From NCBI GenBank assembly GCA_030688545.1, contig JAUYHT010000002.1:300001-332000 (forward strand): a stretch of 32,000 nt of DNA, in the 5' to 3' direction. Origin of the DNA: Candidatus Iainarchaeum sp. GTDB taxonomy: Archaea; Iainarchaeota; Iainarchaeia; Iainarchaeales; VGJJ01. The translations under genes and the position numbers were made by a program. The notes below the pieces were generated by a model. That model was not told the DNA's origin and did not search any database. It saw only the letters and a list, made by a program, of their open reading frames with translations. Shown piece by piece: positions 3,101 to 18,306 of this stretch (position 1 is the stretch's first letter; the number at the start of each line of letters is the position of its first letter).

Positions 3101-6100
3101 GTGGATGACGCGGGGGTCAATGTAGCGGGCAATGGCCCCAAAACCTGCGTCCCATTCGTATTGTTTCCAGCCGACCAAACATTCCCGTATTCGGGAGAGA
3201 GATAGAAACCATTCCCCTGGTCATCCGAAAACGCGCGGAAATTGCTCCCGTCAAACCAGAGGGCGCGGATCTGATAATCATCCGCATCATTATCATACAC
3301 AAAATATTCAATGGTGTGAGGGCCCGCGGAAAGGGTATGATTGGTAAGGGCACAATTGGGATTCATAAAGCGATCCTGCACCAGCACCCCGTCGATTCGC
3401 ACATTTACAGAGGGAACACCTGACGTGAGGAAGCAGAGGCGGGGGAATGTGAAGGCGCGCTCGAGGAAAAGAGTTGTTTGGAACAGCAAGGCTTTGCGTC
3501 CCCGCGAGGCATGCGGAAAAACGGTTTGATTCTGGGTTTCCAAATAACTCACATTGGAAATACGCACCTCATCCGATACTAATAACGGGGCGCTCCCCGA
3601 AAAACCATCCTTGGAATCAAGGAACGCGGGGGCACCCGCCACTTCAAAACGATTCCAATTGCCATCCGGAATGGTCTGCGATGGAAAATCGTCCAGAACC
3701 CAATCCCCATTGATTATGGGTTGATAGTCCAGAGCGAGGGTCCAATTGAAAGAAATAGGGGCATTGGGGGAACGCATCTCGGGAGTCAACACGGGGGGAA
3801 TGGCATGGGCATAGATTCCATTCATGGATAGATTCACTTGTGGAAACAAGGGATCGTGCACGTGGGGGTTGCACTGGTTGACTACTTTGGCCGAATCGCT
3901 CCCCCGACTCACGTCAAACGAATATTTTTCCAAATTAAGGCATTGCGTGTTAGGTGAAATGGGATCCACGCGCACGTCCACATTGCGCACAAAGGCATAC
4001 GCGGACGAGGGCTCACTCTGGCGCTTGGCGAACACATACACCGGATACATCCCAATATGCGGCGCGGGGCCCACGGTGAGGACTTTGGTGTCATTGATGC
4101 CCATGAGTATGGGAGATGAGCTATTCACGGGATTGGCGCCCTGCCTTACAGGGAGTTGGATGATCTGGCTGCCTTCCACAAACCCCCCCGTATACACCTG
4201 CAGGGGCTCGCGGCAATTGATGGTTTGCAGGGTGAGGGAACCGAAGCCCCCTAACGGGAATGACAGCAGGGAAGGAGAAATAGACAGGCACGCATGATCC
4301 TGGGACAAATTAATTCCCCCATCGGAAGAAACGGGAATCAATTGGGTTCCCGAAATATACCCGGGGGCATCGGCCTGGAGGTGCAGGGCATCCCCATCCT
4401 GGGCGGCGGGGATGGAGGCGAAGAATACTCCACTGGAGGAAGACGTGAAGGGAATGAGATTTCCAATGGCGCCCCCCGAGCTATCCAAAAGCTGTCCAGT
4501 CATCTGAATTCCGCTCGTGGCGGGAAGAAGGGGCTTTTGCTGTTGGTCCAAGGCCACCGCTTGAATGGTTTGAGCAGTACCGGGAAGCAAGGAGGAGGGA
4601 GCGACCTGCAGGAAAATCTGGCGTTGGGGAATGGTATAGAATCGGAGTTGCTGGGTGCGGGGCTGTTCATTACTCCCCACTCCATTCAATGTGATAGTGA
4701 GGGTGGAACAGTAAGACACATTCCCCTGGCAAAGTTGGGTCGAGGAAAGGGACACACTTCCCCCTTGGGAGGAATTATTAGAAAAATTAGGCAACGTTTT
4801 TTGAGTGGGCGATACAGTAAACGTCCCGGGATTGGCCGAGAATGACAGCGATGCGGATGGATAATCCCGGCCGGACTGGTTGAGAATGGCATAGGACAAT
4901 GAATAATCCTTCCCCACTTCAATAGGAATGGGAGCGGCTCCATTCACTTGCACCAATTGATTGGTTCCCGTTTCGGCGAGGAAAAAAGTGTACACGTAAT
5001 CCCCCGCATCGGGGAGGGGGGCGCCCAGGGTGAAGGACTCCTGGTATAAGGGGGAGATTTCAGTGGTTGATTTGGACTGATATATGAAAGACAACGCATC
5101 CTGGTTGGGGATGGATTGGGGGTTTATTTCTACGCGGGAAATGAAAGCGAAGGCCCCCGCCGAGGACGCATCCCCGAGCGTGTTGAGAATCACCTTCGCC
5201 GGCTGCCCTGCCGAAACGGGATTAGAAGGGGCAAACTCATCCTGGGAGGAGGCCGTTGAGTATAGGGCGACGCTCCCTTTGGCCGCCTGGCCATCCTTGA
5301 CGGTTCCCACATCGGTTGTCTGTTGGAATAATGGAGAAAGGCTATTCACGCGTTTCACGGCCTGCCACGCCTGTTGAACGGTGGGGGAGCGCACGGAATA
5401 ATGGAACGCATAGGATTGGCCCGGCACCAATGTTTGGGCAATGACGGGCGCGCCGCTCTGGTTCAATTGGTAGATGGCATCCAAATGAATATCCACCTGC
5501 TGCGTGGCACTGCTCAAGGAAACATCAATCCGGAGCACATGGGTGTTGTCTTTCAATAGCGTGAAAGGGGTGCTCGAGAAAGGGAGAAACAAATCCTTGG
5601 ACACGAAAACGAAGGCGGTGTGGTTGGTGTCCACCGCGAGCTGGGCAACGCCCTGGGCATCCGTGATTGCGGCTCCCAAAACGAGGCCCGATGATGCATC
5701 AATAACCTGCACATTGGCATCGGCCACGCGCTGGTTGAATTCATCCGTCACCGTCACTTGCACTAAGGCGGTGCCCGTTTGGAGTTTCACCTCCAGGGGC
5801 AATGTCCGACCAACAACCCCCACTCCTTTAGGGGAAAGGCCATCCGCCGTGGGGGTTGAGCCGGTCGCTTGGTAGGTGCCTGCGGGAAGATTAGGGAAAA
5901 AGGCGGCTCCAGACATGTCCGTTTTCTTCATCCCTAAAGGAATACCATTGGCATCCGGGGAAAATAATATTGCATCGGCCCCCCGCACCCCCAAACCGAA
6001 AGCATCGCGCACGCGCACGTCCACGAGAACAGCATTCGTGGCATTGCCATCAGTCCCTAATTCCAAGGGGTCTAATAGAATAGGTATGGGAGACAGGGCA

Positions 6101-7362
6101 TCCTCATTCACCAAACCTTGGTTTTGAAGAATACGCGTGACATAGTGGGGATGGGCCGCCACGAGACTGGTGCTGCCATTGAAATCCGTGAGGGTTTGGT
6201 CTACTATTCCATTCGTGTCGCTGGTATAGGTGCCATACTCCACATAGCTCCCGCTCACTGTCTGGATGAACAACCCGATTTGAGCCCCTTCCACGGGAAG
6301 CTGGTTGGCGCTGCTCAGCACTTTCACCAATAACTTTTTGGTGGTGGAAGCCGCGGGAAGCATCAGCGTCGATTCGAGAATATCCCCCGCACTCACCACA
6401 ATTTCGCCACTCTCCACCTGTTTGAAACCCGGTTTTCCAGCGGTGAGGATGTAGGTTCCCGGGGCCAAACGCTCAACTAATGCAAACCCCCCATTATCAG
6501 TGATCTTTTGAGTTACCAAGATCTTGGAACCGGACACGGGAACCTTATGCACCTTCACGTCCGCGGCAAAGATGGGGGCTCCTGTTTCATCCACCACATA
6601 GGCTTCGATACTCCCAGTCGTAGGATTATTCCCCCCACCGCTGTCTTCGCGCTGGAGAATAATTTCAGTGGTGTCCCCGAGCAGGGGTTGAGTGGAAGGA
6701 ATGTAACCCGGCACGCGCACATTCACGGAAAGGTTGACGCAATTGGAAGGCTGCAACACCTGCACGTTTCCAAACGACACCACTTGCGCGGCCGGGGCTA
6801 AACCGGTTTGGCACGAAAACGAGAGAGAAATATCATTCGTGGAGAAAGATAAGATGTTCTGCGACGCATCCTTGATGAGCAACACCCTCGCTTTAGGGGG
6901 AATGATCTTTTCCAATAGGGTGAAGCGACTGGTTATACTATTCGCGATCTCAATGACCTGAGATAAAGGATCATACCCCTCCTTCTGAGCCTCAATAGTA
7001 TACGTCCCAGCGGCCAATTGGAAGGCAACTGTTCCGGAAGAGGAAGTAATTTCGGTGATGGCCTGCCCTTGGGCATTCACCATGTCCACGAATACATCGG
7101 CCAGGGGAACATTGGACTCATCCACAAACGATACACTAAAGGTATGCGTGGCGCCCCCACCCAACCCCCCCAAAACCGAGGCGCCCACCCCGATGATGAG
7201 GAAGATTAGTATTCCCAGAACGAGAAGGAAGCTGGGGAAAACCTTATCCAGGGGATCAATGACTTTGTAAACAGGAATGCGTGCCTGGATCTTGTCCAGA
7301 AAACCATAATAGGCATCCTCGAGAGCAAAATAAAACCCCCGCATCCCATCCATGAGTCCCAT
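109..7362 (-). CDS. Giant (2417 aa) membrane-anchored surface protein with Ig-like/carboxypeptidase-regulatory-like beta-sandwich repeats and an internal vWA (MIDAS) domain
   Basis: Single uninterrupted ORF with ATG at 7360-7362. N-terminal hydrophobic helix FPSFLLVLGILIFLIIGVGASVLGG. Recurring motifs GTYTIEAQKEGYDP, PGTYILTAGKPGFKQ and AGTYQATG are typical of CarboxypepD_reg-like domains. DASPS (DxSxS, nt 2781-2795) plus LLLIITDNKPSG (about nt 2432-2466) form a vWA MIDAS signature. Confidence 0.85.
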   Translation of the reverse strand: MGLMDGMRGFYFALEDAYYGFLDKIQARIPVYKVIDPLDKVFPSFLLVLGILIFLIIGVGASVLGGLGGGATHTFSVSFVDESNVPLADVFVDMVNAQGQAITEITSSSGTVAFQLAAGTYTIEAQKEGYDPLSQVIEIANSITSRFTLLEKIIPPKARVLLIKDASQNILSFSTNDISLSFSCQTGLAPAAQVVSFGNVQVLQPSNCVNLSVNVRVPGYIPSTQPLLGDTTEIILQREDSGGGNNPTTGSIEAYVVDETGAPIFAADVKVHKVPVSGSKILVTQKITDNGGFALVERLAPGTYILTAGKPGFKQVESGEIVVSAGDILESTLMLPAASTTKKLLVKVLSSANQLPVEGAQIGLFIQTVSGSYVEYGTYTSDTNGIVDQTLTDFNGSTSLVAAHPHYVTRILQNQGLVNEDALSPIPILLDPLELGTDGNATNAVLVDVRVRDAFGLGVRGADAILFSPDANGIPLGMKKTDMSGAAFFPNLPAGTYQATGSTPTADGLSPKGVGVVGRTLPLEVKLQTGTALVQVTVTDEFNQRVADANVQVIDASSGLVLGAAITDAQGVAQLAVDTNHTAFVFVSKDLFLPFSSTPFTLLKDNTHVLRIDVSLSSATQQVDIHLDAIYQLNQSGAPVIAQTLVPGQSYAFHYSVRSPTVQQAWQAVKRVNSLSPLFQQTTDVGTVKDGQAAKGSVALYSTASSQDEFAPSNPVSAGQPAKVILNTLGDASSAGAFAFISRVEINPQSIPNQDALSFIYQSKSTTEISPLYQESFTLGAPLPDAGDYVYTFFLAETGTNQLVQVNGAAPIPIEVGKDYSLSYAILNQSGRDYPSASLSFSANPGTFTVSPTQKTLPNFSNNSSQGGSVSLSSTQLCQGNVSYCSTLTITLNGVGSNEQPRTQQLRFYTIPQRQIFLQVAPSSLLPGTAQTIQAVALDQQQKPLLPATSGIQMTGQLLDSSGGAIGNLIPFTSSSSGVFFASIPAAQDGDALHLQADAPGYISGTQLIPVSSDGGINLSQDHACLSISPSLLSFPLGGFGSLTLQTINCREPLQVYTGGFVEGSQIIQLPVRQGANPVNSSSPILMGINDTKVLTVGPAPHIGMYPVYVFAKRQSEPSSAYAFVRNVDVRVDPISPNTQCLNLEKYSFDVSRGSDSAKVVNQCNPHVHDPLFPQVNLSMNGIYAHAIPPVLTPEMRSPNAPISFNWTLALDYQPIINGDWVLDDFPSQTIPDGNWNRFEVAGAPAFLDSKDGFSGSAPLLVSDEVRISNVSYLETQNQTVFPHASRGRKALLFQTTLFLERAFTFPRLCFLTSGVPSVNVRIDGVLVQDRFMNPNCALTNHTLSAGPHTIEYFVYDNDADDYQIRALWFDGSNFRAFSDDQGNGFYLSPEYGNVWSAGNNTNGTQVLGPLPATLTPASSTTQPVYIASLPNSFRDILANKGGVEHLKHSGLRVSTDHPGVRAFVKDGDVFAQYVGFDDPAAEQNVIVENLGMQGEKYGILTLTDYAGLSSPQTNVRLGVVVDASPSVLAKVAAHSPNGVDGICRAIANLQKGMRYYSGKTVDLQVFLMNAPSSFTGASSGASIPCEGILPPNATRILSFSPPVSGDPTESWALAAEHAAQDSFFTQSQQSKLLLIITDNKPSGLSNNQRPSEWDSTRELPLVNAAAARLNANGVKGVVWYMTPLESNPHGLDTGDPNRSDAIALMDYFAASTQGFVEAFDFSERVDTSNNVHAWEQASYNKIAKRLLQHAFDRSSQRIAVKLSSLPPNACIGENDVVGDSGVRALPRILLDWDWNDVDIRACDRASDVSTSNGIFCDGSQFLLSAVKKLHEVENAYAPTANSQQVAQIPFWMNFDAYLMEDAFPSDLRQDFVDYYANSSFADAPSWFKNALLGAGAWKDYVNPSNDRMAIVVNGDPNVNVLPTSGLYRVRMDIQWDSDVGTFFIANTPAARITIYLDLLAASSGMSVDSPLYAMPLDGLIGWDESTQLFHREGYGTTFSGGVVDLVGTSSYPLRTYPSSPGTTALKTFEVRVATDFVATNATAPGELARIDNTTNTLYLAPTLPAPVILDWGSNPFGQGSVFYGIQETDFSTGTSAYISHPNQGTNPLSAWKPIASLIKQPAYGCSSSACALCVDGGGNPFASSIVGDYNPPSTVTGYRAPLNATQLFGFTSPSGISNESFLAGAFYRPAGKDYSIVLGLNDNPSREIGSILTMNTVLQNQGQSTGALDAGDAVLESEWAKAQSFQGMLALLAQDWTCISSEGDSTTIFWNRDKLIDLVKEEHAAYGMGTNSSTLVGNACVATGNPLGRGGTYTLQERAGNIPNSQNVLGLCPLYSNSPQVGAYLQLGIPYPVGTQIHLPPTQTTPNTGDPLDRSVQYRYSPTNCGAPTSVKCPSSPDYCANDGERYWVGIPNLQP

Positions 7363-7420: not shown

Positions 7421-8461
7421 CTACTTATTTTTGAATTGCGGAACCCGCTCGTACGCCATCAGCGCCTGCTGGGGGGCTTCTTTTAACGACTTGGCGGGGA
7501 TGCCCAACTCGCGCGTGATGGATCGGGCGAGCTCGTCTTCGAAACCATGATGAGTGTACACCTGCTTGGGCTCGGCCTCTTTCACATAGCGCAGGAGTTG
7601 CGCATAATCCGCATGATCGGATAAGGGGAAATTGCGCTCAAACCCATTTTTCCACTGCCACCCCGTGGCCTTGGCGGCCCGGATATTTCGCTTGGCGGAG
7701 ATGGCAATGGCATGCAACACGTGCGGGGTGCATAAGGAAGGGGGGAGAATCAATAATTGGGCGTCAGGGAGATTATGATCTATCTTTTCATAGGCTCCCA
7801 ACCGTGCTTCATGGGACTCATACACTTGGTTCTTCTCAAACACTGATTCATGGACGAATGGAATGGTATTCGTGTACTCGTTCACCATTTTGGTCAATTC
7901 CTGGGCCTTACCTGTTGCATAGCCTGCGAGCACGGGCAACCCCCCCTGTTGCTGCACCTCGCGGATCCAAGCGCCCATCTCCTCGTACACTTGTTCACGG
8001 GGCGGGAAGGAAAACTCCTTCATCCCGAAGGTGGATTCAATGACTAAGGTATCGCAGGGCACAATTTCAGCCCCTTCTTGAATAATGGAATCCTGGAGCT
8101 TGAAATCGGTGGTAGCGCAAATGGTTTGCTCGCCTTCGATTACGATCTGCGCGCTCCCCAAAATGTGGCCCGCGCTCACGAAGGAAACATTTTCGTTGGC
8201 ATGGGATTGTTTCTTCCGAAGGGAAAGGGTTTTGGCTGTGGCCTTTAGGGGAATCTTTTTTCGGATGAGCGAATGTGTGGGAGGCGTCATAAAGTATGGA
8301 GACGTGCCGGCCGCACCAATGTAGACATGGTCAGAATGGGCGTGCGAGACAAACACCTGGTCGGCCTGCACCTTTTTCCGAGCGGGATCGATGAGATATT
8401 TTGATTCCCCGGCCGATACCAGGATACCCCCCCATGCCTCGCTCACGAACATGGATGCCAT
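7421..8461 (-). CDS. Metallo-beta-lactamase/beta-CASP-fold nuclease (COG1236, mRNA 3'-end processing factor-like)
   Basis: HAHSDH zinc motif near the N-terminus and C-terminal PLSDHADYAQLLRYVKEAEPKQVYTHHG (beta-CASP motifs B/C style). The ORF-track start at 8530 is GTG and overlaps the upstream gene. The ATG at 8461 avoids that overlap and lies about 29 nt downstream of GATTATAGG (minus strand, 8487-8495). Confidence 0.8.
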   Translation of the reverse strand: MASMFVSEAWGGILVSAGESKYLIDPARKKVQADQVFVSHAHSDHVYIGAAGTSPYFMTPPTHSLIRKKIPLKATAKTLSLRKKQSHANENVSFVSAGHILGSAQIVIEGEQTICATTDFKLQDSIIQEGAEIVPCDTLVIESTFGMKEFSFPPREQVYEEMGAWIREVQQQGGLPVLAGYATGKAQELTKMVNEYTNTIPFVHESVFEKNQVYESHEARLGAYEKIDHNLPDAQLLILPPSLCTPHVLHAIAISAKRNIRAAKATGWQWKNGFERNFPLSDHADYAQLLRYVKEAEPKQVYTHHGFEDELARSITRELGIPAKSLKEAPQQALMAYERVPQFKNK

Positions 8462-8487
8462 ATGGGAATGGCGAATAAAAAGCAACC

Positions 8488-8775
8488 CTATAATCGGGAT
8501 AGGCGAGTGAAAACTGGGGGGTTCAAGCACATGGGATACAATGCGTCCACAAATTTTTGGGTATGCGGGGCATCGCGGTGGGCCTTTTCAGCAGGGGAGT
8601 CTTTGAATACCATTAGATGAACATATTGGAATGAATTTGGAAAGCGAAAGGCCTCATACACCTGCGTTCTCCCCTTTTCCTTGGAACGAATAGCCCGTAA
8701 AAAGGAACGGATGGCCCGATCTCCCTTGGCACGGGCCCCCTTCTTGAGAGCATACGTGACCATCTGGGCTGGCAT
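8488..8775 (-). CDS. Small ABM (antibiotic-biosynthesis-monooxygenase/Dabb)-like domain protein
   Basis: 95 aa with an ATG start. The stretch YEAFR..FQYVHLMVFKDSPAEKAHRDAPHTQKF resembles the ferredoxin-like ABM fold signature. Confidence 0.55.
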   Translation of the reverse strand: MPAQMVTYALKKGARAKGDRAIRSFLRAIRSKEKGRTQVYEAFRFPNSFQYVHLMVFKDSPAEKAHRDAPHTQKFVDALYPMCLNPPVFTRLSRL

Positions 8776-8830
8776 TCAGGATGAGCGATAAGGGGCTTTT
8801 TGAGGGTTTCCCTCCACGCCGGGAAAACGC

Positions 8831-8838
8831 ATATATAG
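8831..8838 (+). promoter_or_regulatory. TATA box ATATATAG for the coiled-coil gene
   Basis: Centre is about 25 nt upstream of the ATG at 8859. It lies inside the first 26 codons of the longer ORF-track model (8781), which argues for the internal start. Confidence 0.45.
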
Positions 8839-8858
8839 CCCGTTTCCATTCTCCCCGC

Positions 8859-9938
8859 ATGGGCGAATCGGTGCTCCTCCTGGAACAGCTGCATGACGAG
8901 CTGTCCGCCTTCAAGGAACTCCCTCAGATTCCTTGGCACCAGACCAATCGTGCCGCCCTGATCGAACGCCTGAAGGCCTGGCACACGCATACTAAACGAA
9001 CGCGGGAAATCATTTCATTATTACAACGGGAACAACTCATGAACCCTATGTTGAAAGGGATGGATTTGCATGAGCTTGAACGCGAGCTATCCAAGAACAT
9101 GGATGTGCTCCACCGCAACATCCGTTTCGAAGAAGACAAACACGCCCGGAAAATAGACCTCACCCAAAAAATAACTACCCCTGAATTGGGGATGGAACTG
9201 GATGCGCGGATGCATCGGCAATGGTTGAAACTCCTGCGGACGCAGGAACATGTGCAGATTGCCCTGCGGAATGGGATGGAATCCCCCCTCACCGCACAAG
9301 CCATGGAGGGGGAAATATTTTCACTCATCAAGACGAAAGACCAGGAATTGCAATCCATCACCAAGGAACGCGACCAATTGAAGCGCGAAAAATACTTCGG
9401 GCCACATGAAAAATATTCCCTCACCGAGATGGAGAATGATCTCCAGGAATTATTACAAACATTCGCCATCCAGAAGCATGCCCTCAAGGACCATTTGGAT
9501 CAAGGGAAAAAGAAGCTGGATGAGTACGCGGTACAACATGAGCACCTGCACCACAAGACGATGAAGCTGGAACACCTGGTGACGGAACTCACCAAGCGTC
9601 ATATTGGAATATTGTCGGTGCTCAAGAAAGAAAGGGATTTCGCCCGGAAGTTGGCATTGGAGATGGAGAGCGAGACCGCGCACCTGCGGGCGCTCTATTC
9701 CAAGGAACTGCTCTCCATGGAAGAGAAGAAGCATGCCCTCAAACAGGAGGCATTCGAAAAACACGCGTCGCACATCGCGGAACTGGAACGAAAGCTCAAA
9801 AGCCAATCGCAATTGAACAAGGAACTGGATGCCCTGCTCCGGGAGAAGGAACGGCACATCCAACGAACGGCGGAAACCACCCTCCCGACTCAAAAACAAA
9901 CCAATCGCCGGAAAGAGAACACGCGCATGGTGAGTTGA
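8859..9938 (+). CDS. Coiled-coil protein, E/K/L/H-rich, unknown function
   Basis: Long ORF with heptad-like charged composition throughout, for example LQSITKERDQLKREKYF and ELERKLKSQSQLNKELDALLREKERH. Start re-set from 8781 to the MGESV ATG at 8859 because of the TATA spacing and because the divergent ABM gene begins only 5 nt from 8781. Confidence 0.6.
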   Translation: MGESVLLLEQLHDELSAFKELPQIPWHQTNRAALIERLKAWHTHTKRTREIISLLQREQLMNPMLKGMDLHELERELSKNMDVLHRNIRFEEDKHARKIDLTQKITTPELGMELDARMHRQWLKLLRTQEHVQIALRNGMESPLTAQAMEGEIFSLIKTKDQELQSITKERDQLKREKYFGPHEKYSLTEMENDLQELLQTFAIQKHALKDHLDQGKKKLDEYAVQHEHLHHKTMKLEHLVTELTKRHIGILSVLKKERDFARKLALEMESETAHLRALYSKELLSMEEKKHALKQEAFEKHASHIAELERKLKSQSQLNKELDALLREKERHIQRTAETTLPTQKQTNRRKENTRMVS

Positions 9939-9961
9939 ATTCTAATAGAATGGTCTGCGCG

Positions 9962-10390
9962 TTAGCGAAACCACCCCAAAAGCTCCAATGGTTTCCTTTT
10001 GGTGTCCCCATCCCCATAATCAGGATTCACCACCACTTGGACCCAATTATCGGGTTCGAGAGTAAACTGAATGGGATATTCCAATGGGATCACGCGGGTC
10101 TCATCCACATTCAGGGATAGGGATTGGTTTCCCAGAAAACGGTCATTGGAAGTGATGACTAATGAATAAGAGGCGGATGACTGGGAATGGTTGCGCAGGT
10201 CAATGGCCAAGCGGAGGATGTTCTCATCATCATGGAAAGTGGGATACGCGGCGAATGAGAGAGTTGAATAGGTCGTGTCTGCCGTGTAGGGAAAGAAAAT
10301 ATAATAGCCCACGGCCACGAGAAGCAACCCCAGGGCCACCATGCCCGCCAGGGAGATCGCGCGTTCTTCCATATCGTTCTTGAGTGGCAT
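9962..10390 (-). CDS. Small single-pass membrane protein, unknown function
   Basis: The ORF-track start (10420) is TTG and the first ATG is at 10390 (MPLKNDMEERAIS). One TM helix, LAGMVALGLLLVAVGYYIFF, is followed by a probable beta-rich ectodomain. Confidence 0.5.
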   Translation of the reverse strand: MPLKNDMEERAISLAGMVALGLLLVAVGYYIFFPYTADTTYSTLSFAAYPTFHDDENILRLAIDLRNHSQSSASYSLVITSNDRFLGNQSLSLNVDETRVIPLEYPIQFTLEPDNWVQVVVNPDYGDGDTKRKPLELLGWFR

Positions 10391-10454
10391 GCCATAATCC
10401 TTCCATCGGGCGTCCTTCAATTAGGCGTATTCCCATTACTCACCCAGGAGCAAT

Positions 10455-10463
10455 CTTTAAGAG
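10455..10463 (+). promoter_or_regulatory. TATA-like box CTTTAAGAG
   Basis: Centre is 26 nt upstream of the ATG at 10485. Confidence 0.4.
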
Positions 10464-10484
10464 TGATACCCCCTTCCTAGCGGC

Positions 10485-12032
10485 ATGTATCCGGATGAAA
10501 ACCAGGGAGAGGAAGAATTTGCTGCTCCTCCAATGGGAGAAGATCCCCCCTATTCGTCTTTTGAAGGAGCTCCTCCCGCCCCGGCACCTGGGCCCATTGA
10601 TACGTTACGAAATATATGGGCGGCGCATGGGAAAACGTTTCTCAAGATAGGCCTACTCCTCGTGGTAGGATTCTTCGTCTATGATTTTTTTATTGGGTCC
10701 CTGGTCCCCACCACGATTGAAGCGCGTGACACGGAAAACATGCTCCTCAGTGGCGTGCAAGGACAATTATATTCGGGGAACGACCCCAACCCTATCCAGA
10801 CATTCTCGGGAACCATTACCATTGATTTGCGCCCGGGCGATTACCGGGTGGAATGGGAAACCGGGGGAACTGCCTATAGGAATCGGGGAGTGGACTATTT
10901 CACCATCGACGCGGGAAGCAAGGAAAGCGGCCACGTTGAACGCGGGGTGTTCGAGCAATCTATTGGGGTGGAATTGTTATCCCTCGAATTTCCCTCCGTG
11001 ATGGTCGCCGGTCAACAGGATGGCCGGGCGCAAGTGGTGCTCACCAATACCACCAATCAAGCCCAAACGATTGAACTGGTTTTTGAGGAGGCCCTCGCGC
11101 TATTCGTTATTACCACCCAATCCTCCCCCATCACCATCGGACCCAACACGAGTGAATCGGTGACCCTCCTCATGAATGTCCCATCCACGGTGCCCATCAA
11201 GGACACCCGCTCCGGGGACGCCAAGAAGGCCCGCGTGCGGGTAAAATACACCAAGAGTGCCAAAACCGCGGATTTTACTTTATTCAAGAGCTTCGATTTC
11301 TCGGTGAGCCCAAGCACCAATGTGGCGTTCACCGCGCGCGCCAATGAACTGGTGGCCAAACGCTATGCTATTCGCAACCGGGGCAACGCGGATGCGGGGG
11401 AAAAAATTCAGACATTAATCACCATCAAAGGAAGCCCCGCTAATGACTCAGGGGATATCACGTCATGGTTTTCCTGGAGCATTGATCCCCCATTTGGCCC
11501 GCTGGCCAAAGGGGAAACGTTTTCAGTGGACCTGCGCTTTAATGCTCCCTTGACCGCGTTGAATGATACGATTGAAGGAGAAGTGACATTCTCCACCAGC
11601 TTCTGGGAGCAGATCGTGCCATTTACCATATCCCTTTCCGCGAGCAAGGTAGAGGTCGTGGCAACCGTTGATGGCTCCACGAATAAAACATTCAACCTGA
11701 CCCAAAATTCGGCCACCGGGCAATGGGACAGCCGAACGGCCACATTGAAAGTGGAGAACAAAGGGGAACTGCCCATCGAAACCATATTGTACACCCTCGA
11801 TGGGTGCACGGAGCAACATATCAGTCTCGTCGATTCCTCTTTCTTCCCCATCCAGAACCTCAATGAATCCGGGAAGACGGGAAGCAGCAAGAGCACCACC
11901 CTCCTTGTCTCCGCGCCCGCGACACAACTCCCGGACACGGAAACTTTTTGCCAGATTCGCTTGACTTTTTTAGACCCTAAGACGGGGGATATAAGCACCG
12001 TGGACCCGGTGCTTGTGCGCATCGCGACGTGA
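10485..12032 (+). CDS. Membrane-anchored surface protein with Pro-rich cytoplasmic N-terminus and Ig/CARDB-like beta-sandwich ectodomains
   Basis: 515-aa ORF with an ATG start. Pro-rich head (APPAPAPGP), TM helix IGLLLVVGFFVYDFFIG, then repetitive T/S/V/N-rich beta-type sequence. Confidence 0.7.
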   Translation: MYPDENQGEEEFAAPPMGEDPPYSSFEGAPPAPAPGPIDTLRNIWAAHGKTFLKIGLLLVVGFFVYDFFIGSLVPTTIEARDTENMLLSGVQGQLYSGNDPNPIQTFSGTITIDLRPGDYRVEWETGGTAYRNRGVDYFTIDAGSKESGHVERGVFEQSIGVELLSLEFPSVMVAGQQDGRAQVVLTNTTNQAQTIELVFEEALALFVITTQSSPITIGPNTSESVTLLMNVPSTVPIKDTRSGDAKKARVRVKYTKSAKTADFTLFKSFDFSVSPSTNVAFTARANELVAKRYAIRNRGNADAGEKIQTLITIKGSPANDSGDITSWFSWSIDPPFGPLAKGETFSVDLRFNAPLTALNDTIEGEVTFSTSFWEQIVPFTISLSASKVEVVATVDGSTNKTFNLTQNSATGQWDSRTATLKVENKGELPIETILYTLDGCTEQHISLVDSSFFPIQNLNESGKTGSSKSTTLLVSAPATQLPDTETFCQIRLTFLDPKTGDISTVDPVLVRIAT

Positions 12033-12071
12033 AAAAATTTTACCTAAATATTCCTCGTTAACCATGAGACA

Positions 12072-12146
12072 CGGCCCCGGAGGGATTTGAACCCTCGACC
12101 TTCGCCTTAGGAGTGCGCTGCTCTATCCGGGCTGAGCTACGGGGCC
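12072..12146 (-). tRNA. tRNA-Arg (anticodon CCU), with an unusually weak anticodon stem
   Basis: Minus strand reads GGCCCCG TA GCTC AGCCCGGATA GAGC A GCGCA CTCCTAA GGCGA AGGTC GAGGG TTCAAAT CCCTC CGGGGCC G. Acceptor, D and T arms pair perfectly. The anticodon stem has only 3 Watson-Crick pairs (G27/A43 and A31/G39 do not pair). No CCA is encoded. Confidence 0.75.
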
Positions 12147-12159
12147 TTATTACCATTAT

Positions 12160-12233
12160 TGATTTATCGAGGGATTGAAAATCCCTCGGTAGACCCTCGC
12201 TGCGGCCCGCCAAAACGGGCCAGCTAAGAGGCC
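12160..12233 (-). pseudogene. tRNA-like module A (degenerate, lacks an anticodon arm)
   Basis: Minus strand reads GGCCTCTTAGCTGGCCCGTTTTGGCGGGCCGCAGCGAGGGTCTACCGAGGGATTTTCAATCCCTCG. The 5' end resembles the tRNA-Arg 5' end and a T-arm-like hairpin lies at 12168-12188. Boundaries are approximate. Confidence 0.45.
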
Positions 12234-12273
12234 GTTACTTTAGTGATCTATCATGGGTTTGAAAAACCCATGG
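12209..12273. repeat. 65-nt direct repeat, copy A
   Basis: 59/65 identical to 12372-12436 (hand alignment), offset 163 bp. Contains the hairpin catgggttt-gaa-aaacccatg. Confidence 0.85.
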
Positions 12274-12312
12274 TCAATCCAAAACATCCTTTGGAAAGAA
12301 TCCAATTGTTCC

Positions 12313-12396
12313 GGCCGCTGGGAGGGTGTAACCCTCCCACGTCCCTCGGGGCGCACGATCGAAAGCGTGCCGCCAAAACGGGCCAGTTACGGGGCC
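12313..12396 (-). pseudogene. tRNA-like module B (degenerate type-II-like tRNA with an 8-nt anticodon-type loop CTTTCGAT)
   Basis: Minus strand reads GGCCCCG TA ACTGGCCCGTTTTGGCG GCACG CTTTCGAT CGTGC GCCCCGAGGGACGT GGGAGGG TTACA CCCTCCC AGCGGCC. Five of 7 acceptor pairs are possible. The D and T loops lack the canonical GG and TTCRA. Confidence 0.45.
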
Positions 12397-12436
12397 ATTA
12401 CTTAAGTGATCTATCATGGGTTTGAAAAACCCACGG
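12372..12436. repeat. 65-nt direct repeat, copy B
   Basis: Partner of 12209-12273, with 6 mismatches. Confidence 0.85.
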
Positions 12437-12458
12437 GGTAGCCCCTCGATTTAACCGG

Positions 12459-13034
12459 TTACACGACGGTCTGAAGGGCAAAAGCGGTCACTAGGGGGAT
12501 GGTAAGGGCATCGTTGAGGGGAAAGAGTTCCACGGCGGTGGCGATGAGGGCCACCTGGAATGCGATGGGCAATGGGAACAATGGAAGGAGGGCCATGAGG
12601 CACACCAGGAAACCGGCCACCGATCCCTCGATGGATTTGTTAAAGATTATTTTCCGGTTGCCAAAACGCATCCCCACTAATGTGGAAGCGGAATCCTGGA
12701 AGGTCAAGGCGATGATGCCCCCCGCGATTATGAAAGGATTGGAAAAGACCCATGCGGTTATCCCAATTCCCAAAACGAAATAGAACGCCCCCTCCCCCGG
12801 AACCTTTTCATTGGCGCGGGAGACTTCTTTCAATATGTCATTCACGACCCAGGCCATCCGGTTATAGGCCAGGGATGACAGGAAGAAGCCGAAAAGGAGC
12901 AAAATGAGGGTGAGGCCGCGGAGGGCATCCAAGGAAACCAGGAACAGAACGGCCAGAAAAATAAGACCCAATCCCAAGTGGAACAATTGCCGCTTGAACT
13001 CGCGGATCCATTCCTTACGCCAGCGGGTAACCAT
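12459..13034 (-). CDS. CTP-dependent polyprenol/dolichol kinase family membrane protein (COG0170/SEC59-like)
   Basis: Multi-TM protein with N-terminal EFKRQLFHLGLG (E..RK..H type motif) and C-terminal FQDSASTLVGMRFGNRKIIFNKSIEGSVAGF (GD..A..G...G...KS.EGS pattern). The ORF-track start at 13043 is GTG and the first ATG is at 13034. Lies 9-18 nt downstream of fibrillarin, so probably in the same operon. Confidence 0.65.
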   Translation of the reverse strand: MVTRWRKEWIREFKRQLFHLGLGLIFLAVLFLVSLDALRGLTLILLLFGFFLSSLAYNRMAWVVNDILKEVSRANEKVPGEGAFYFVLGIGITAWVFSNPFIIAGGIIALTFQDSASTLVGMRFGNRKIIFNKSIEGSVAGFLVCLMALLPLFPLPIAFQVALIATAVELFPLNDALTIPLVTAFALQTVV

Positions 13035-13052
13035 ATTTTTCACCAGAGGTAC

Positions 13053-13745
13053 TCACGCGGGCTTCCTGGAATGGATGAGGAAATGATCCTTCTCGAACCG
13101 ACCCAAAGGAATGGTTTGAATAATCGTCAACTCCTCCTGCAGGCGAATGCGTTCCCCTTCAAAAACCTTTGCGGGGTCCGCCGCGAAATCGATGGAGCGG
13201 GCTTTGATGACCAATGCTCCTTCCGTTCCTTTCGTTCCGAATAGACGCATATTGCGGAGGAATATCTCTCCCTGATTGCGCTGGGAGATATCCTGCACCA
13301 CTATTTGGAAAGAGAGACCATCGAGGTCGGGGGCATAGGACGAAGGATTTGCTGCGTCCCCGAGCAAGGGAAGGATGTTGGTCCGCGTCTCCGCGAGCGC
13401 GGTGAACTTTACCATGGCTTGGGGGGAGATGTCCACGCCCACGACTAATCCATTTTTCCCCACGATGTCTGAAACATGCGATACGGTAGTGCCCTCGGCG
13501 CAACCCAGGTAGAGGACATGGTGCCCCTCTCTAATGGGAAAACTTGTCCACCCGGATGCCAATGCGGCCGCGAGCTTGGATCGGAAGGGATTCCACTCCC
13601 GCCATTCTATATTTCCCTCCTTGAGGATCCGTTCGCCATAGATACGTTGTCCGGGAACGAGAGAGCGGGTGAACCAGTGGTGGTTTATTTGTTTGAGGGT
13701 GTTGGAATATCCCTCGGGCATTCCATCATTTACTTTTGCGACCAT
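13053..13745 (-). CDS. flpA: Fibrillarin, C/D-box sRNP 2'-O-methyltransferase
   Basis: 230 aa with EWREWNPFRSKLAAAL, the SAM motif VLYLGCAEGTTVSHVSDIVG and GVDISP. Immediately downstream of nop5, the canonical archaeal operon. Confidence 0.95.
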   Translation of the reverse strand: MVAKVNDGMPEGYSNTLKQINHHWFTRSLVPGQRIYGERILKEGNIEWREWNPFRSKLAAALASGWTSFPIREGHHVLYLGCAEGTTVSHVSDIVGKNGLVVGVDISPQAMVKFTALAETRTNILPLLGDAANPSSYAPDLDGLSFQIVVQDISQRNQGEIFLRNMRLFGTKGTEGALVIKARSIDFAADPAKVFEGERIRLQEELTIIQTIPLGRFEKDHFLIHSRKPA

Positions 13746-16371: not shown

Positions 16372-16803
16372 TTATTTGAATGGATTAATAGCCACAATTC
16401 CATCCATTTTTTGGAAATCCTTGGTATTTTCAGTGTAAATATGGACGATTCCATTTTCTTTCATCGTTTGGGCGATTAAAGCATCCCAGGGTGAGTTCGA
16501 CTGCCCATTTATGAATGCCTTTTCAACCGTATGAGTGGTATAATTTATTTTTTTACAGGAAGGCAGGCGATTGATTTGAGAAATAATTCTTTGGACCAAT
16601 TCAGGAGGGAAAGGATGTTCCAATTTATATCGCACCACCCGGTTAAACTCGGCCAGGATTTGATTACTCACTACAAGATGACGTCTTCCTTCTATACAAT
16701 CGTTCATTAATGTTTTGGCTATTTCATGCCTTTCCCCATCTTTTGTATTATAGGCATATACTAATATGTTGGTATCAAGGAAAAAAGGATCAGTCGCGGT
16801 CAT
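16372..16803 (-). CDS. vapC: PIN-domain ribonuclease toxin VapC
   Basis: FFLDTNILVYAY near the N-terminus, then AEF, WDALIA and YTENTKDF acidic/PIN motifs. I chose the ATG at 16803 (MTATDPFFLDTN), which overlaps the vapB stop by 14 nt. An upstream ATG at 16872 would overlap vapB by 83 nt. Confidence 0.85.
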   Translation of the reverse strand: MTATDPFFLDTNILVYAYNTKDGERHEIAKTLMNDCIEGRRHLVVSNQILAEFNRVVRYKLEHPFPPELVQRIISQINRLPSCKKINYTTHTVEKAFINGQSNSPWDALIAQTMKENGIVHIYTENTKDFQKMDGIVAINPFK

Positions 16804-17050
16804 ACAATTCGTCTCGGGATTTGTACAGTATCTTACCCCCGTTAAATCCCTTGTTAAGCGTTTCGATGGCATTCCGCCGAACTTCCTCTGACTCCTTCTT
16901 CTTCACCCACAAATCCATAGCTTCAGAAATAGCCTTGCCTAAAACACCTTTACTTTCACCCAAAAATTTCTTTACCGTCTTACGAAAACGCTGCTCGCTT
17001 TTCGTCGAAACGTTGGCCGTAATGGTAGCTGTGTCAGACATGCTATACAT
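16790..17050 (-). CDS. vapB: VapB-type antitoxin (probable RHH/CopG-like)
   Basis: 86-aa ORF directly upstream of and overlapping vapC. An ATTTAAAT box (17066-17073) lies upstream. An alternative ATG lies at 17041. Confidence 0.6.
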   Translation of the reverse strand: MYSMSDTATITANVSTKSEQRFRKTVKKFLGESKGVLGKAISEAMDLWVKKKESEEVRRNAIETLNKGFNGGKILYKSRDELYDRD

Positions 17051-17201
17051 TTAGATTATTGGATTATTTAAATGGATGTGGGGTGGGCTAAAATCATTCT
17101 TCCACGTCGTTTTAAAGCATTCCCAGGCCCACATTATCTTAATCCGGAACCAATGGCGTTCTGGGGTTCCGGCATGTAAAAATGGGCGAGTTTCCCCATA
17201 A

Positions 17202-17275
17202 GCCCACGTAGCTCAGTCTGGAAGAGCACCAGTTTCGTAAACTGGGGGCCGAGGGTTCAAATCCCTCCGTGGGCT
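17202..17275 (+). tRNA. tRNA-Thr (anticodon CGU)
   Basis: GCCCACG TA GCTC AGTCTGGAA GAGC A CCAGT TTCGTAA ACTGG GGGCC GAGGG TTCAAAT CCCTC CGTGGGC T. All four stems are fully paired, with T33, A37, GG in the D loop and a TTCAAAT T loop. A TAAAAAT box is centred 22 nt upstream. Confidence 0.9.
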
Positions 17276-17280
17276 TGTCT

Positions 17281-18306
17281 ATGGAAAAACGTGTTTTCGT
17301 AGGTAATCGGCTGGATTCGATAGCTTTCTTCAATGATGTGAAAAATGGCGGAAATTTTCATAGCTTTAAAGAATTGTGCACCATTCTAAGAATCCCGCAT
17401 GGTAGATTCTGGTTTTTGCAAACAGGAAGACGAAGCCTTACTATCACTCAATTCAAAAAATTATTTTCATATTTACCCCCAGAATTACAAAAGAGATACT
17501 ATAAAATAATCGATATCCGCCCACGGAATTGGGGTCAAATAATTGGCGGAAAAATCGCTTATGAGAAAATAAAAGATGCATTTGAAAAGGGACGGACAAA
17601 GGCCTGTGAAGCCAGGTCAAGAAAAGCGGAGTCAAAATTTAATATTTTGCAAACGTTGAACAGCGATATATGCGAATATTTAGGTGCCTTCGCAGGAGAT
17701 GGTTTCACTAACGACAACAATTCAAATTATACGATCGGATTTTCTGGAGATAGTCGTTATGATTTTGATTATTATCTGAACACAATAATTCCGATATCTG
17801 AAAAGTACTTCAATTTAACCCATCACCATACTCGTATTGATAAAAATTCCATGTGGATCAGTTTCTATTCAAAGGCATTATTCAAAATGCTAACCGAAAG
17901 ATTTGATATGCCAAAAGGAGAAAAATGGGACAAAGTCCTTGTTCCGAAAGAAATTATGAGGAGTAATATTGAACATAAAACAGCTTTTTTACGTGGTACT
18001 TTTGATAGTGATGGATGTGTTTCATTCGATAGAAGACCCATATACAAAGAGCCCTATATGCGAGTGGATATCACTATGGTAAATACGCCTATCCTAAAAC
18101 AACTTAATCAAATACTAACAGAATTAGGTATTAATTCCAGTGTACTCGGGAACGGAAAACATCTTCAAATTTGTTCAAAAGAGAATGTCCGAAAATTCTT
18201 TGAAATTGTTGGAACCTCTAATAAGCGCCATCGTACTAAGGTTCGACAAAAATACAAAAATTTCGAGGAATGGAATCCCGCTAGGTTTTCATACCCAGTT
18301 TCGTAA
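17281..18306 (+). CDS. Double-motif LAGLIDADG homing endonuclease with an N-terminal extension of about 130 aa
   Basis: Two LAGLIDADG motifs, YLGAFAGDGFT and FLRGTFDSDGCVS. The ATG at 17281 is 6 nt after the tRNA-Thr discriminator base (the ORF-track start at 17269 is a GTG inside the tRNA). The TAA stop (18304-18306) is T36-A37-A38 of a duplicated anticodon loop. Very AT-rich: 17 G+C in nt 17461-17520. Confidence 0.85.
   Translation: MEKRVFVGNRLDSIAFFNDVKNGGNFHSFKELCTILRIPHGRFWFLQTGRRSLTITQFKKLFSYLPPELQKRYYKIIDIRPRNWGQIIGGKIAYEKIKDAFEKGRTKACEARSRKAESKFNILQTLNSDICEYLGAFAGDGFTNDNNSNYTIGFSGDSRYDFDYYLNTIIPISEKYFNLTHHHTRIDKNSMWISFYSKALFKMLTERFDMPKGEKWDKVLVPKEIMRSNIEHKTAFLRGTFDSDGCVSFDRRPIYKEPYMRVDITMVNTPILKQLNQILTELGINSSVLGNGKHLQICSKENVRKFFEIVGTSNKRHRTKVRQKYKNFEEWNPARFSYPVS

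Follow-up and report, generated by a model that had tools for sequence, protein, structure and literature searches.

A probable tandem array of degenerate tRNA-Arg(CCU) copies, with a conserved cassette at promoter distance, in a Candidatus Iainarchaeum contig

Bacterial tRNA arrays are one case in which transfer RNA (tRNA) genes have been multiplied in tandem by unequal crossing-over. Archaeal promoters have an architecture of B recognition element and TATA element, and +1 frameshift suppressors, e.g. those of the bacterial sufD type, carry anticodon loops of 8 nucleotides (nt). Tandem arrays formed by unequal crossing-over are likewise described for plant tRNA clusters in the available parts of two reports (PMC10701932, PMC12652284). 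The partial or pseudo tRNA genes beside an intact tRNA gene in the available text of van der Gulik et al. (2023, PMC9897764) are either single duplicates of an attachment (att) site with a 9-23 kb integrated element in between (44 bp in the worked example) or CRISPR spacers. In the archaeon Haloferax volcanii, tRNA-like structures upstream of 5S rRNA, termed t-elements, are cut by tRNase Z and RNase P (Holzle et al. 2008, 2012, as cited in the available part of PMC4326828). Here we describe a 312-nt gap directly upstream of a tRNA-Arg(CCU) gene of Candidatus Iainarchaeum sp., at positions 12147-12458 of a 32,000-nt stretch of DNA (assembly GCA_030688545.1, contig JAUYHT010000002.1, positions 300,001 to 332,000), which we call the window and to which all plain coordinates refer.

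The gap is best read as a head-to-tail array, specific to this lineage, in which the neighbouring tRNA-Arg(CCU) gene is repeated as degenerate copies. On the minus strand, it runs as a chain of a unit reduced to its 3′ part (P_0), a module (M_B), a decayed unit, a second module (M_A) and finally the intact tRNA-Arg(CCU). We assign a probability of roughly 60% to the view that this array of pseudo-copies arose by local duplication and unequal recombination, and that the 3′ cassette of each unit acts as the box A promoter of the next and possibly, through a run of T, as the terminator of the previous one. Like the pseudo tRNA genes mentioned above, the units are tRNA-derived, lie near their parent, score as non-canonical and could be mistaken for odd tRNAs. 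Unlike the cases in the available text of PMC9897764, they are near full-length copies arranged head to tail with spacers of 10-13 nt, without a mobile element and with a part that is conserved between species. With the plant clusters, as far as the available parts of those reports describe them, the locus shares head-to-tail units of tRNA size and a higher-order repeat, here 163 nt corresponding to two units; it differs in that the last unit alone is a tRNA, the upstream units being degenerate, and in the tiny size of the array (312 nt) in a compact archaeal genome. What distinguishes the locus from known pseudo-copies and tandem tRNA arrays is a cassette at promoter distance that is conserved, with its pairing maintained, in two species. 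The features of the chain are as follows.

12072-12146, minus strand: intact tRNA-Arg(CCU), 75 nt, parent sequence and final unit of the chain (ARAGORN; Rfam tRNA model, 60 bits, E=8.6e-11)
12147-12159, minus strand: AT-rich spacer ATAATGGTAATAA from M_A to the tRNA, 13 nt, with the predicted tRNA-Arg transcription start inside (sequence; box A geometry, PMC3491384)
12160-12233, minus strand: M_A, degenerate full-length tRNA-Arg copy from the start GGCCTCTTAGCT to the box GATAAATCA, 74 nt, tip of the anticodon arm missing (alignment)
12168-12188, minus strand: hairpin H_t, CGAGGGATT-TTC-AATCCCTCG with the centre TTTTCAAT, former T arm of M_A and candidate box A (alignment, pairing, box A geometry)
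12188-12199, minus strand: 12-mer CGAGGGTCTACC of M_A (pattern scan, tRNA alignment)
12202-12273, minus strand: 72-nt duplication, apparently recent, copy 1, comprising P_x and the 5′ half of M_A (repeat search)
12234-12273, minus strand: cassette P_x, 40 nt, with hairpin H_x (12252-12272), box GATAGATCA (12244-12252) and a 10-nt spacer, abutting the M_A start (repeats; 41/45 identical to P_0)
12274-12312, minus strand: 39-nt segment without recognisable tRNA similarity (shuffle test, p=0.42)
12313-12396, minus strand: M_B, degenerate full-length tRNA-Arg copy, 84 nt, with the start GGCCCCGTAACT, a T-arm-like hairpin, the acceptor 3′ strand and the discriminator (..CAGCGGCC G) (alignment)
12320-12338, minus strand: H'_B, GGGAGGG-TTACA-CCCTCCC, T-arm derivative of M_B with a loop of 5 rather than 7 nt (alignment, pairing check)
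12353-12370, minus strand: inner hairpin of M_B, GCACG-CTTTCGAT-CGTGC, closing an 8-nt loop and occupying the anticodon-arm position (pairing check)
12365-12436, minus strand: 72-nt duplication, copy 2, comprising P_0 and the 5′ half of M_B, 89% identical to copy 1 (repeat search)
12397-12448, minus strand: cassette P_0, 3′ part only, 52 nt, with the 12-mer CGAGGGGCTACC (12437-12448), hairpin H_0 (12415-12435, one G.U), box GATAGATCA (12407-12415) and a spacer (repeats, pattern scan)
12459-13034, minus strand: upstream neighbour, a 191-aa membrane protein, last gene of a nop5-fibrillarin cluster (gene context)

P_0 begins 10 nt past the upstream gene's stop codon and extends to the M_B start. 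The units measure 84, 79 and 74+13 nt, i.e. each is close to the length of a tRNA plus a spacer, and the 163-nt period comprises two such sub-units of ~80-87 nt each. Thus, the period represents a two-unit higher-order repeat. The original prediction, made from the sequence alone, had placed two tRNA-like modules in the gap with a 163-bp period; the period was correct, the register was not. It had also missed a third, more diverged copy of hairpin and box at 12156-12190, directly upstream of the real tRNA.

Most of the elements on which that prediction was built were recovered. The 65-nt blocks at 12209-12273 and 12372-12436 are identical at 59/65 positions, and the repeat extends to 72 nt with 89% identity at a spacing of 163. 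A 26-mer within the block occurs exactly twice in the window and in none of 100 shuffles. The 163-nt period escaped Tandem Repeats Finder, since outside the 72-nt block the copies have diverged too far. The hairpin CATGGGTTT-TTC-AAACCCATG at 12252-12272 is paired throughout, and its copy at 12415-12435 has a single G.T pair. The tRNA-like starts GGCCTCTTAGCT (12222-12233) and GGCCCCGTAACT (12385-12396) match the start of tRNA-Arg at 10 and 11 of 12 positions, respectively. The inner and T-arm-like hairpins of M_B and the neighbouring tRNA-Arg(CCU) were confirmed as well. Other details needed correction. The first copy of the recurring 12-mer lies at 12188-12199 instead of 12189-12200, and two copies of so degenerate a motif are not significant by themselves (0.2 expected by chance). 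M_A had been said to lack exactly 17 nt, while the net difference is 14 nt (7 nt from GGCGG to CGAGGG versus 21 nt in M_B). The cloverleaf drawn for M_B is not the minimum-free-energy fold, and the stability of M_B is unremarkable (z=-1.4).

Descent from tRNA-Arg was assessed by alignment. M_A aligned locally with tRNA positions 1-67 (score 39 versus a null of 16.3+-3.0, p=0.001) and M_B with positions 1-74 (score 34 versus a null of 16-18, p=0.003). With dinucleotide shuffles, the 5′ halves of M_A and M_B resembled the 5′ half of the tRNA (p=0.0055 and p=0.0015, respectively) and their 3′ halves the 3′ half (p=0.0005 and p=0.001), while the non-corresponding halves gave no significance. A MAFFT alignment of the modules with both tRNAs was collinear, with a mean column identity of 64%. 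Both modules thus show the collinear similarity across both halves, beyond chance, that defines a degenerate tRNA copy. Neither the segment 12274-12312 nor P_0 and P_x taken alone do so; the segment represents either filler or the 5′ part of a unit after complete decay.

Individual parts of the tRNA were also traced. Written as CGAGGG-ATTTTCAAT-CCCTCG, H_t can be set beside the real T arm, CGAGGG-TTCAAAT-CCCTCC, and the hairpin just 5′ of the real tRNA is the former T arm of M_A. The 12-mer aligns to the 3′ strand of the anticodon stem plus the variable loop of tRNA-Arg (GCGAGGGTC versus GCGAAGGTC). M_B has kept a T-arm derivative, the acceptor 3′ strand and the discriminator G. Its inner hairpin shows no significant similarity to the anticodon arm or to the rest of tRNA-Arg.

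The modules did not behave as tRNAs in any test. An Infernal search had been proposed in the original prediction; with the Rfam tRNA covariance model (RF00005, gathering threshold 29 bits), neither module was recognised even at E<=10, in searches of 801 nt and 311 nt, nor was the module of the relative L024 described below. The real tRNA-Arg was the only sequence at the locus to score (60 bits). ARAGORN in default mode found no tRNA in the modules, and its relaxed, intron and mitochondrial modes gave marginal, mutually inconsistent calls. A 4-base anticodon 'ttcg', called in mitochondrial mode in both species, is not credible, as this mode yields 7-10 'tRNAs' per 320-520 nt. At gathering and permissive thresholds alike, the Rfam scans scored the two real tRNAs alone; weak matches to SNORA44, Atu_C8, mir-6644 and plastid families were far below threshold and were judged to be due to chance. 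The acceptor stem forms 5 of 7 pairs in M_B, at most 4 of 7 in the L024 module (M_L24) and 2 of 7 in M_A. The D and T loops are non-canonical, as originally stated: a D loop of the G18G19 type is missing, and the T-arm derivatives have loops of 3-5 nt on stems of 7-9 bp, the T loop measuring 5 nt in M_B and 4 nt in L024.

These results bear directly on the proposal that M_B is an expressed tRNA-like RNA or a +1 suppressor. In the most far-reaching form of this idea, M_B and the L024 module are working tRNAs with an 8-nt anticodon loop that serve as natural +1 frameshift or quadruplet decoders. As in +1 suppressor tRNAs, the 8-nt loop is real, sits on a 5-bp stem at the position of the anticodon arm, is kept in L024 with a covarying stem and looks like an anticodon loop of the Arg(UCG) type with one additional U. 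The remaining features of a tRNA all fail in the above tests, and M_A lacks the 8-nt loop. A suppressor of this type carries the loop in an otherwise functional, chargeable body; here, the loop is present but the body fails. Since the tRNA tests failed and the L024 copy has neither an acceptor stem nor a T loop, a role in decoding is very unlikely, and we consider working decoders extremely improbable, close to refuted already by the structure tests. Two other RNA candidates were rejected. A split, permuted or extra-intron tRNA was dismissed, as the real tRNA is complete by itself and thus leaves no missing exon to explain. C/D-box small RNAs, considered in view of the fibrillarin/Nop5 neighbours, were dismissed because no acceptable C (RUGAUGA) or D (CUGA) box was found by eye.

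To place the modules phylogenetically, related loci were compared. The same-strand pairing of the upstream gene with tRNA-Arg(CCU) is kept in L024, L025, L031, L034, L036 and L044. L024 stems from a separate sequencing run, and its neighbour protein is 79% identical to the 191-aa protein of the window. It contains one module between the same gene and tRNA-Arg(CCU), composed, in this order, of GGCCCCGTAGCTCA (the same 14 nt with which its tRNA begins), GTCCA-TTTTCGAT-TGGAC, CGAGGAGCTACGC, GTGGGGTT-TTAC-AACCCCAC, GATAGGTCA and a 9-nt spacer before the tRNA. The other five, more distant relatives have no module but a short promoter region or a toxin-antitoxin insertion. With one module in L024 and none in these five, the module most probably arose in the common ancestor of the window and L024 organisms and was amplified in the lineage of the window.

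The two species share the 3′ cassette of ~50 nt, which consists of the 12-mer, the hairpin and a GATARRTCA box. Excluding the tRNA-like start, the L024 cassette is identical to P_0 at 39/47 positions (83%; score 54 versus a null of 16+-3.3, p<=0.0005). Within the window family, P_0 shares 41/50 positions with P_t and 41/45 with P_x. As a neutral yardstick we used the adjacent gene, in which 34/74 four-fold sites (46%) and 43% of the third codon positions are identical between window and L024, i.e. close to saturation. Thus, the cassette has been conserved. In each copy, the arms of its hairpin differ in sequence but pair along their full length, one copy having a G.U pair; 94% of the cells are paired, 3 of 9 pairs are changed on both sides, and slid registers reach at most 50% pairing. 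Likewise, the inner hairpins of M_B and L024 share 7 of 8 loop positions, with 3 of 5 stem pairs changed on both sides. In the module-free relative L031, the tRNA-Arg promoter (L031:7600-7625, minus strand) contains GTGGGGTTTTA, identical to the cassette hairpin of L024 over its 5′ arm and the beginning of its loop. It lies 14 nt nearer to the tRNA than in L024 and lacks the 3′ arm; it could be a cassette remnant, a precursor or a chance match.

We then considered the distance of the cassette from the next unit. The archaeal box A is an AT-rich element about 26-27 nt upstream of the transcription start (PMC3491384). In the window, YTTTAAAW is found at about -30..-23 from the ATG in 11 genes; starts of open reading frames (ORFs) preceded by this box-A-like motif are 7362(-), 14696(-), 14750(+), 10485(+), 20480(+), 21148(+), 23510(-), 26510(+), 27902(+) and 28633(+). 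Standing so close to the start codon of most genes, the motif leaves no room for a Shine-Dalgarno leader, and the organism therefore seems to have mostly leaderless mRNAs. In relatives, the tRNA-Arg box A is TTTTAAAA at -35..-28 (L025) and TTTTTAAAAA at -33..-24 (L034). The AT-rich centres of the cassette hairpins (TTTTTCAAA / TTTTCAAT / TTTTACAA) lie 25-36 nt upstream of each start, namely at -33..-25 from the M_A and M_B starts, at -35..-28 from tRNA-Arg and at -32..-25 from the L024 tRNA. Because the hairpin centre sits at box A distance, the cassette is most likely the promoter of the next unit. Its AT-rich element and a T5 run on the transcribed strand resemble the box A promoters and T-stretch terminators of archaeal tRNA genes (PMC3491384). 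It differs from standard archaeal promoters in that the element lies inside a perfect 8-9-bp hairpin with covarying arms, contains a C in the box and is flanked by two extra conserved motifs. The geometry would follow from the tRNA itself: a T loop lies ~19 nt from the tRNA 3′ end and, with a spacer of 10-13 nt, would come to lie ~30 nt upstream of the next unit, so that a decaying upstream copy would supply an AT-rich, box-A-like sequence at the right distance.

From these data we infer the following history. In the ancestor common with the L024 organism, the tRNA gene would have been duplicated in tandem with a spacer of ~10 nt, and the upstream copy would have ceased to be a tRNA. In the lineage of the window, the array would then have been enlarged by unequal recombination, including a two-unit duplication of ~163 nt whose best-preserved remainder may be the 72-nt block with its 89% identity; M_B is apparently a recombinant of a cassette hairpin and a real T arm. 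The 3′ part of the pseudo-copy, comprising the former anticodon-stem/variable region, the T arm and the following sequence, would have been kept as a cassette of ~50 nt before the next 'start', most likely as the promoter of the next unit, and its T5 run on the transcribed strand may terminate the preceding one. M_A and M_B would then probably be transcribed as short non-tRNA RNAs, which may be by-products or substrates of the enzymes that process tRNA ends.

Several observations weigh against this account of the array. The hairpin centres contain a C where the box A consensus of the genome, YTTTAAAW, has an A. Neither the 12-mer (about -56..-45) nor the GATARRTCA box (about -22..-13) is a standard element of archaeal promoters, and the start of the L024 module is preceded by ATTAATAG at -36..-29 and not by a cassette. 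P_0, P_x and the L024 cassette (P_L24) are not significantly similar to the tRNA 3′ half (p=0.18-0.57), only P_t and the 3′ half of M_B being so; the T-arm origin of the cassette family therefore depends on family membership, i.e. on the 41/50 match of P_0 to P_t. The covariation sample comprises four sequences, three of them paralogues, and 18 of 500 shuffles reach the observed values. Furthermore, the sequence between 12147 and 12314, and with it the second repeat copy, comes solely from the window's own assembly. Positions 12315-12458 are confirmed by an independent Logan assembly (L001), which agrees with the window at every position from the upstream gene to 12315. In two other assemblies of this organism, four contigs break off at the module/tRNA region or beside it: L001 ends at 12315, L030 starts at tRNA position 6, L114 ends in the tRNA T arm and L002 ends inside the 191-aa gene. 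The locus is thus hard to assemble, and the copy number of the array may vary.

The main point left unexplained by a promoter is the maintained base-pairing. Changes on both sides of a stem are not predicted for a plain DNA promoter and point to a selected RNA or single-strand structure, which keeps alive the explanation that the modules are functional structured RNAs. They would form a long structured 5′ leader of pre-tRNA-Arg or separate tRNA-derived small RNAs, in either case recognised by RNase P/tRNase Z like the Haloferax t-elements, and the hairpins and the 8-nt loop would be under selection. The pairing of both conserved hairpins survives both-sided changes, the inner loop YTTTCGAT is kept between species whose neutral sites are nearly saturated, and the G.U pair of H_0 is tolerated on the minus (tRNA) strand only. 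M_L24 and M_A fold far better than shuffled sequences (z=-6.0 and -4.2), and the M_B acceptor-like stem (5/7) is stacked on the T-arm-like hairpin, with a discriminator G. The plus strands fold equally well, however (z=-6.4, -4.4 and -2.3), so that folding allows no assignment of the strand, and RNAalifold on M_A, M_B and M_L24 gave 7 pairs only, without covariation or a common overall fold. The pairing of start with 12-mer falls into different columns in M_A and M_L24, the inner hairpin is lost in M_A, M_L24 has no more than four acceptor-like pairs, and two species are the sole basis. A comparison with the t-elements, as the available part of PMC4326828 presents them, is likewise divided. 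The locus shares with them a tRNA-like element immediately upstream of a stable RNA gene in an archaeon, and the acceptor/T-arm-like stack of M_B could in principle be recognised; but M_A and the L024 module have no credible acceptor stem, and a downstream tRNA would not need such a signal. On balance, we regard functional structured RNAs as a possibility to be taken seriously, yet a doubtful one.

Besides local duplication, the copies could derive from mobile DNA, and two such origins were weighed. According to the first, mobile elements repeatedly integrated site-specifically into the 5′ part of tRNA-Arg and were excised again, and the units are the scars, with a displaced promoter and a 5′ tRNA fragment (att-site duplication) left behind each time. 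Archaeal partial tRNA genes beside intact ones commonly arise in this way, according to the available text of PMC9897764, and the 72-nt duplicated block indeed consists of promoter-like sequence plus a tRNA 5′ half. In L024, an exact 14-nt direct repeat, GGCCCCGTAGCTCA, surrounds a 79-nt insert, and the locus takes up small insertions in relatives, i.e. toxin-antitoxin genes in L025 and probably in L044. Yet no integrase or integrated element was found between or beside the copies, and the flanking gene order equals that of the module-free relatives. M_A and M_B contain both tRNA halves in order instead of one end, the copies are 10-13 nt apart with nothing inserted in between, and the near-exact identity to the tRNA start spans only 12-14 nt, compared with a 44-bp repeat in the example from the available text of PMC9897764. 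In viral contigs searched with both ends of tRNA-Arg, no match to the 3′ end was obtained, and the sole match to the 5′ end belonged to a complete, unrelated tRNA-Arg(UCU). We therefore consider integration scars improbable. The stacked recombination relics suggested in the original prediction come closest to the evidence as far as collinear, degenerate, head-to-tail copies of tRNA-Arg are concerned; no integrated element or integrase was found, and the copies carry both tRNA halves instead of one att-like end.

According to the second origin, also raised in the original prediction, the units are a tRNA-derived dispersed repeat resembling short interspersed nuclear elements (SINEs) or miniature inverted-repeat transposable elements (MITEs) that landed here twice. 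The tRNA-derived body with internal hairpins would suit such a repeat, and other assemblies of the same organism break here, as they do at repeats. No further copy was found, however, in the other 31.6 kb of the window or, in the proposed check of relatives, in 0.61 Mb of their loci. The hairpin-plus-box pattern gave one chance match in 596 Gb of GTDB representative genomes and none in JGI metagenomes, and two 17-mers matched IMG/VR viral contigs only at the search seeds; the source lineage itself is missing from the GTDB representative, JGI and viral sets searched. The position of the module is moreover identical in both species; judged from the window, the relatives' loci and these collections, a dispersed repeat is very unlikely. 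For L024, an insertion of casposon or MITE type, with a target duplication of 14 nt, was rejected, because its putative terminal inverted repeat matches at ~7/9 positions only and is absent from the window.

Concerning insertions at the locus more generally, L025 carries toxin-antitoxin genes (PIN with MazE/PrlF-like) at L025:10789-11438 on the far side of tRNA-Arg, between the tRNA and a 514-aa gene. In L044, ~700 bp separate the membrane-protein gene from the tRNA (L044:3560-4100), and a similar insertion may be present. In the window, a PIN gene lies at 16372-16872. Small insertions seem to have a hotspot at the tRNA-Arg locus.

The tRNA-Arg(CCU) genes themselves show some peculiarities. 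In the window gene, cmscan marked two non-standard pairs in the anticodon stem. In the L024 gene (L024:964-1040), the T stem contains a U.U mismatch and the acceptor stem a G.U pair. The orthologues in L025 (L025:10613-10778) and L044 (L044:4232-4468) were missed by ARAGORN in default mode; its intron mode revealed unusually long introns of 91 nt and 161 nt, respectively, at the canonical position, and the L025 intron holds a GGGGATTCC..GGAACCCC hairpin. A further tRNA-Arg(CCU), at L031:7520-7600 on the minus strand, has a 13-nt D loop, was missed by ARAGORN and was spotted by eye.

The gene content of the window is archaeal and includes fibrillarin, Nop5, a class II aminoacyl-tRNA synthetase and a LAGLIDADG protein; for the 191-aa membrane protein, the nearest named relative, with 41% identity, comes from a Candidatus Diapherotrites genome. 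The region at 16-19 kb is low in GC, with 39-43% versus about 53%. A tRNA-Thr(CGU) gene (17202-17275) is followed by a nominally overlapping 345-aa LAGLIDADG-domain ORF (17269-18306). The same pairing occurs in L031 (12251-12322 and 12265-13374), a relative with 42% identity, and is therefore a conserved arrangement and not a recent insertion of a homing endonuclease. An 8-bp inverted repeat, CCGGAACC ... GGTTCCGG (17144-17151 and 17165-17172), lies directly upstream of the box-A-like GTAAAAAT of tRNA-Thr and is the window's second example of a hairpin adjoining a tRNA promoter. A giant ORF encoding 2417 aa (109-7362, minus strand) has counterparts of >2249, 2464 and 5251 aa at the conserved position near this locus in relatives (L025:15814-20564; L032:1-3132, 7775-13527). 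Faint Ig-like/CarboxypepD_reg matches were found in these ORFs, which probably encode surface proteins typical of small-genome archaea.

With two species as its basis, the evidence is narrow, and we regard the array as a lead rather than a discovery. A more ambitious view, which we find unlikely, is that the modules form a small selected family of tRNA-Arg-derived RNA elements in uncultured DPANN-like archaea. In that case, a pseudo-tRNA would have been exapted, either by turning its T arm into a box A promoter/terminator hairpin of the downstream tRNA or as an expressed tRNA-like RNA that, with its conserved 8-nt-loop hairpin, controls the processing or supply of the rare tRNA-Arg(CCU). For the annotation of archaeal metagenome-assembled genomes, odd 'tRNA-like' calls beside tRNA genes can be tandem pseudo-copies and need not be integration scars or exotic tRNAs. 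If the reading proposed here is right, the locus illustrates the recycling of a tandemly duplicated tRNA gene in a compact archaeal genome: the copy upstream sheds its identity as a tRNA, and its 3′ part comes under selection, with its pairing maintained, where the next promoter must sit. The locus would then be a concrete case of a regulatory sequence that originated from a structural RNA gene, and a possible source of new tRNA-like small RNAs.

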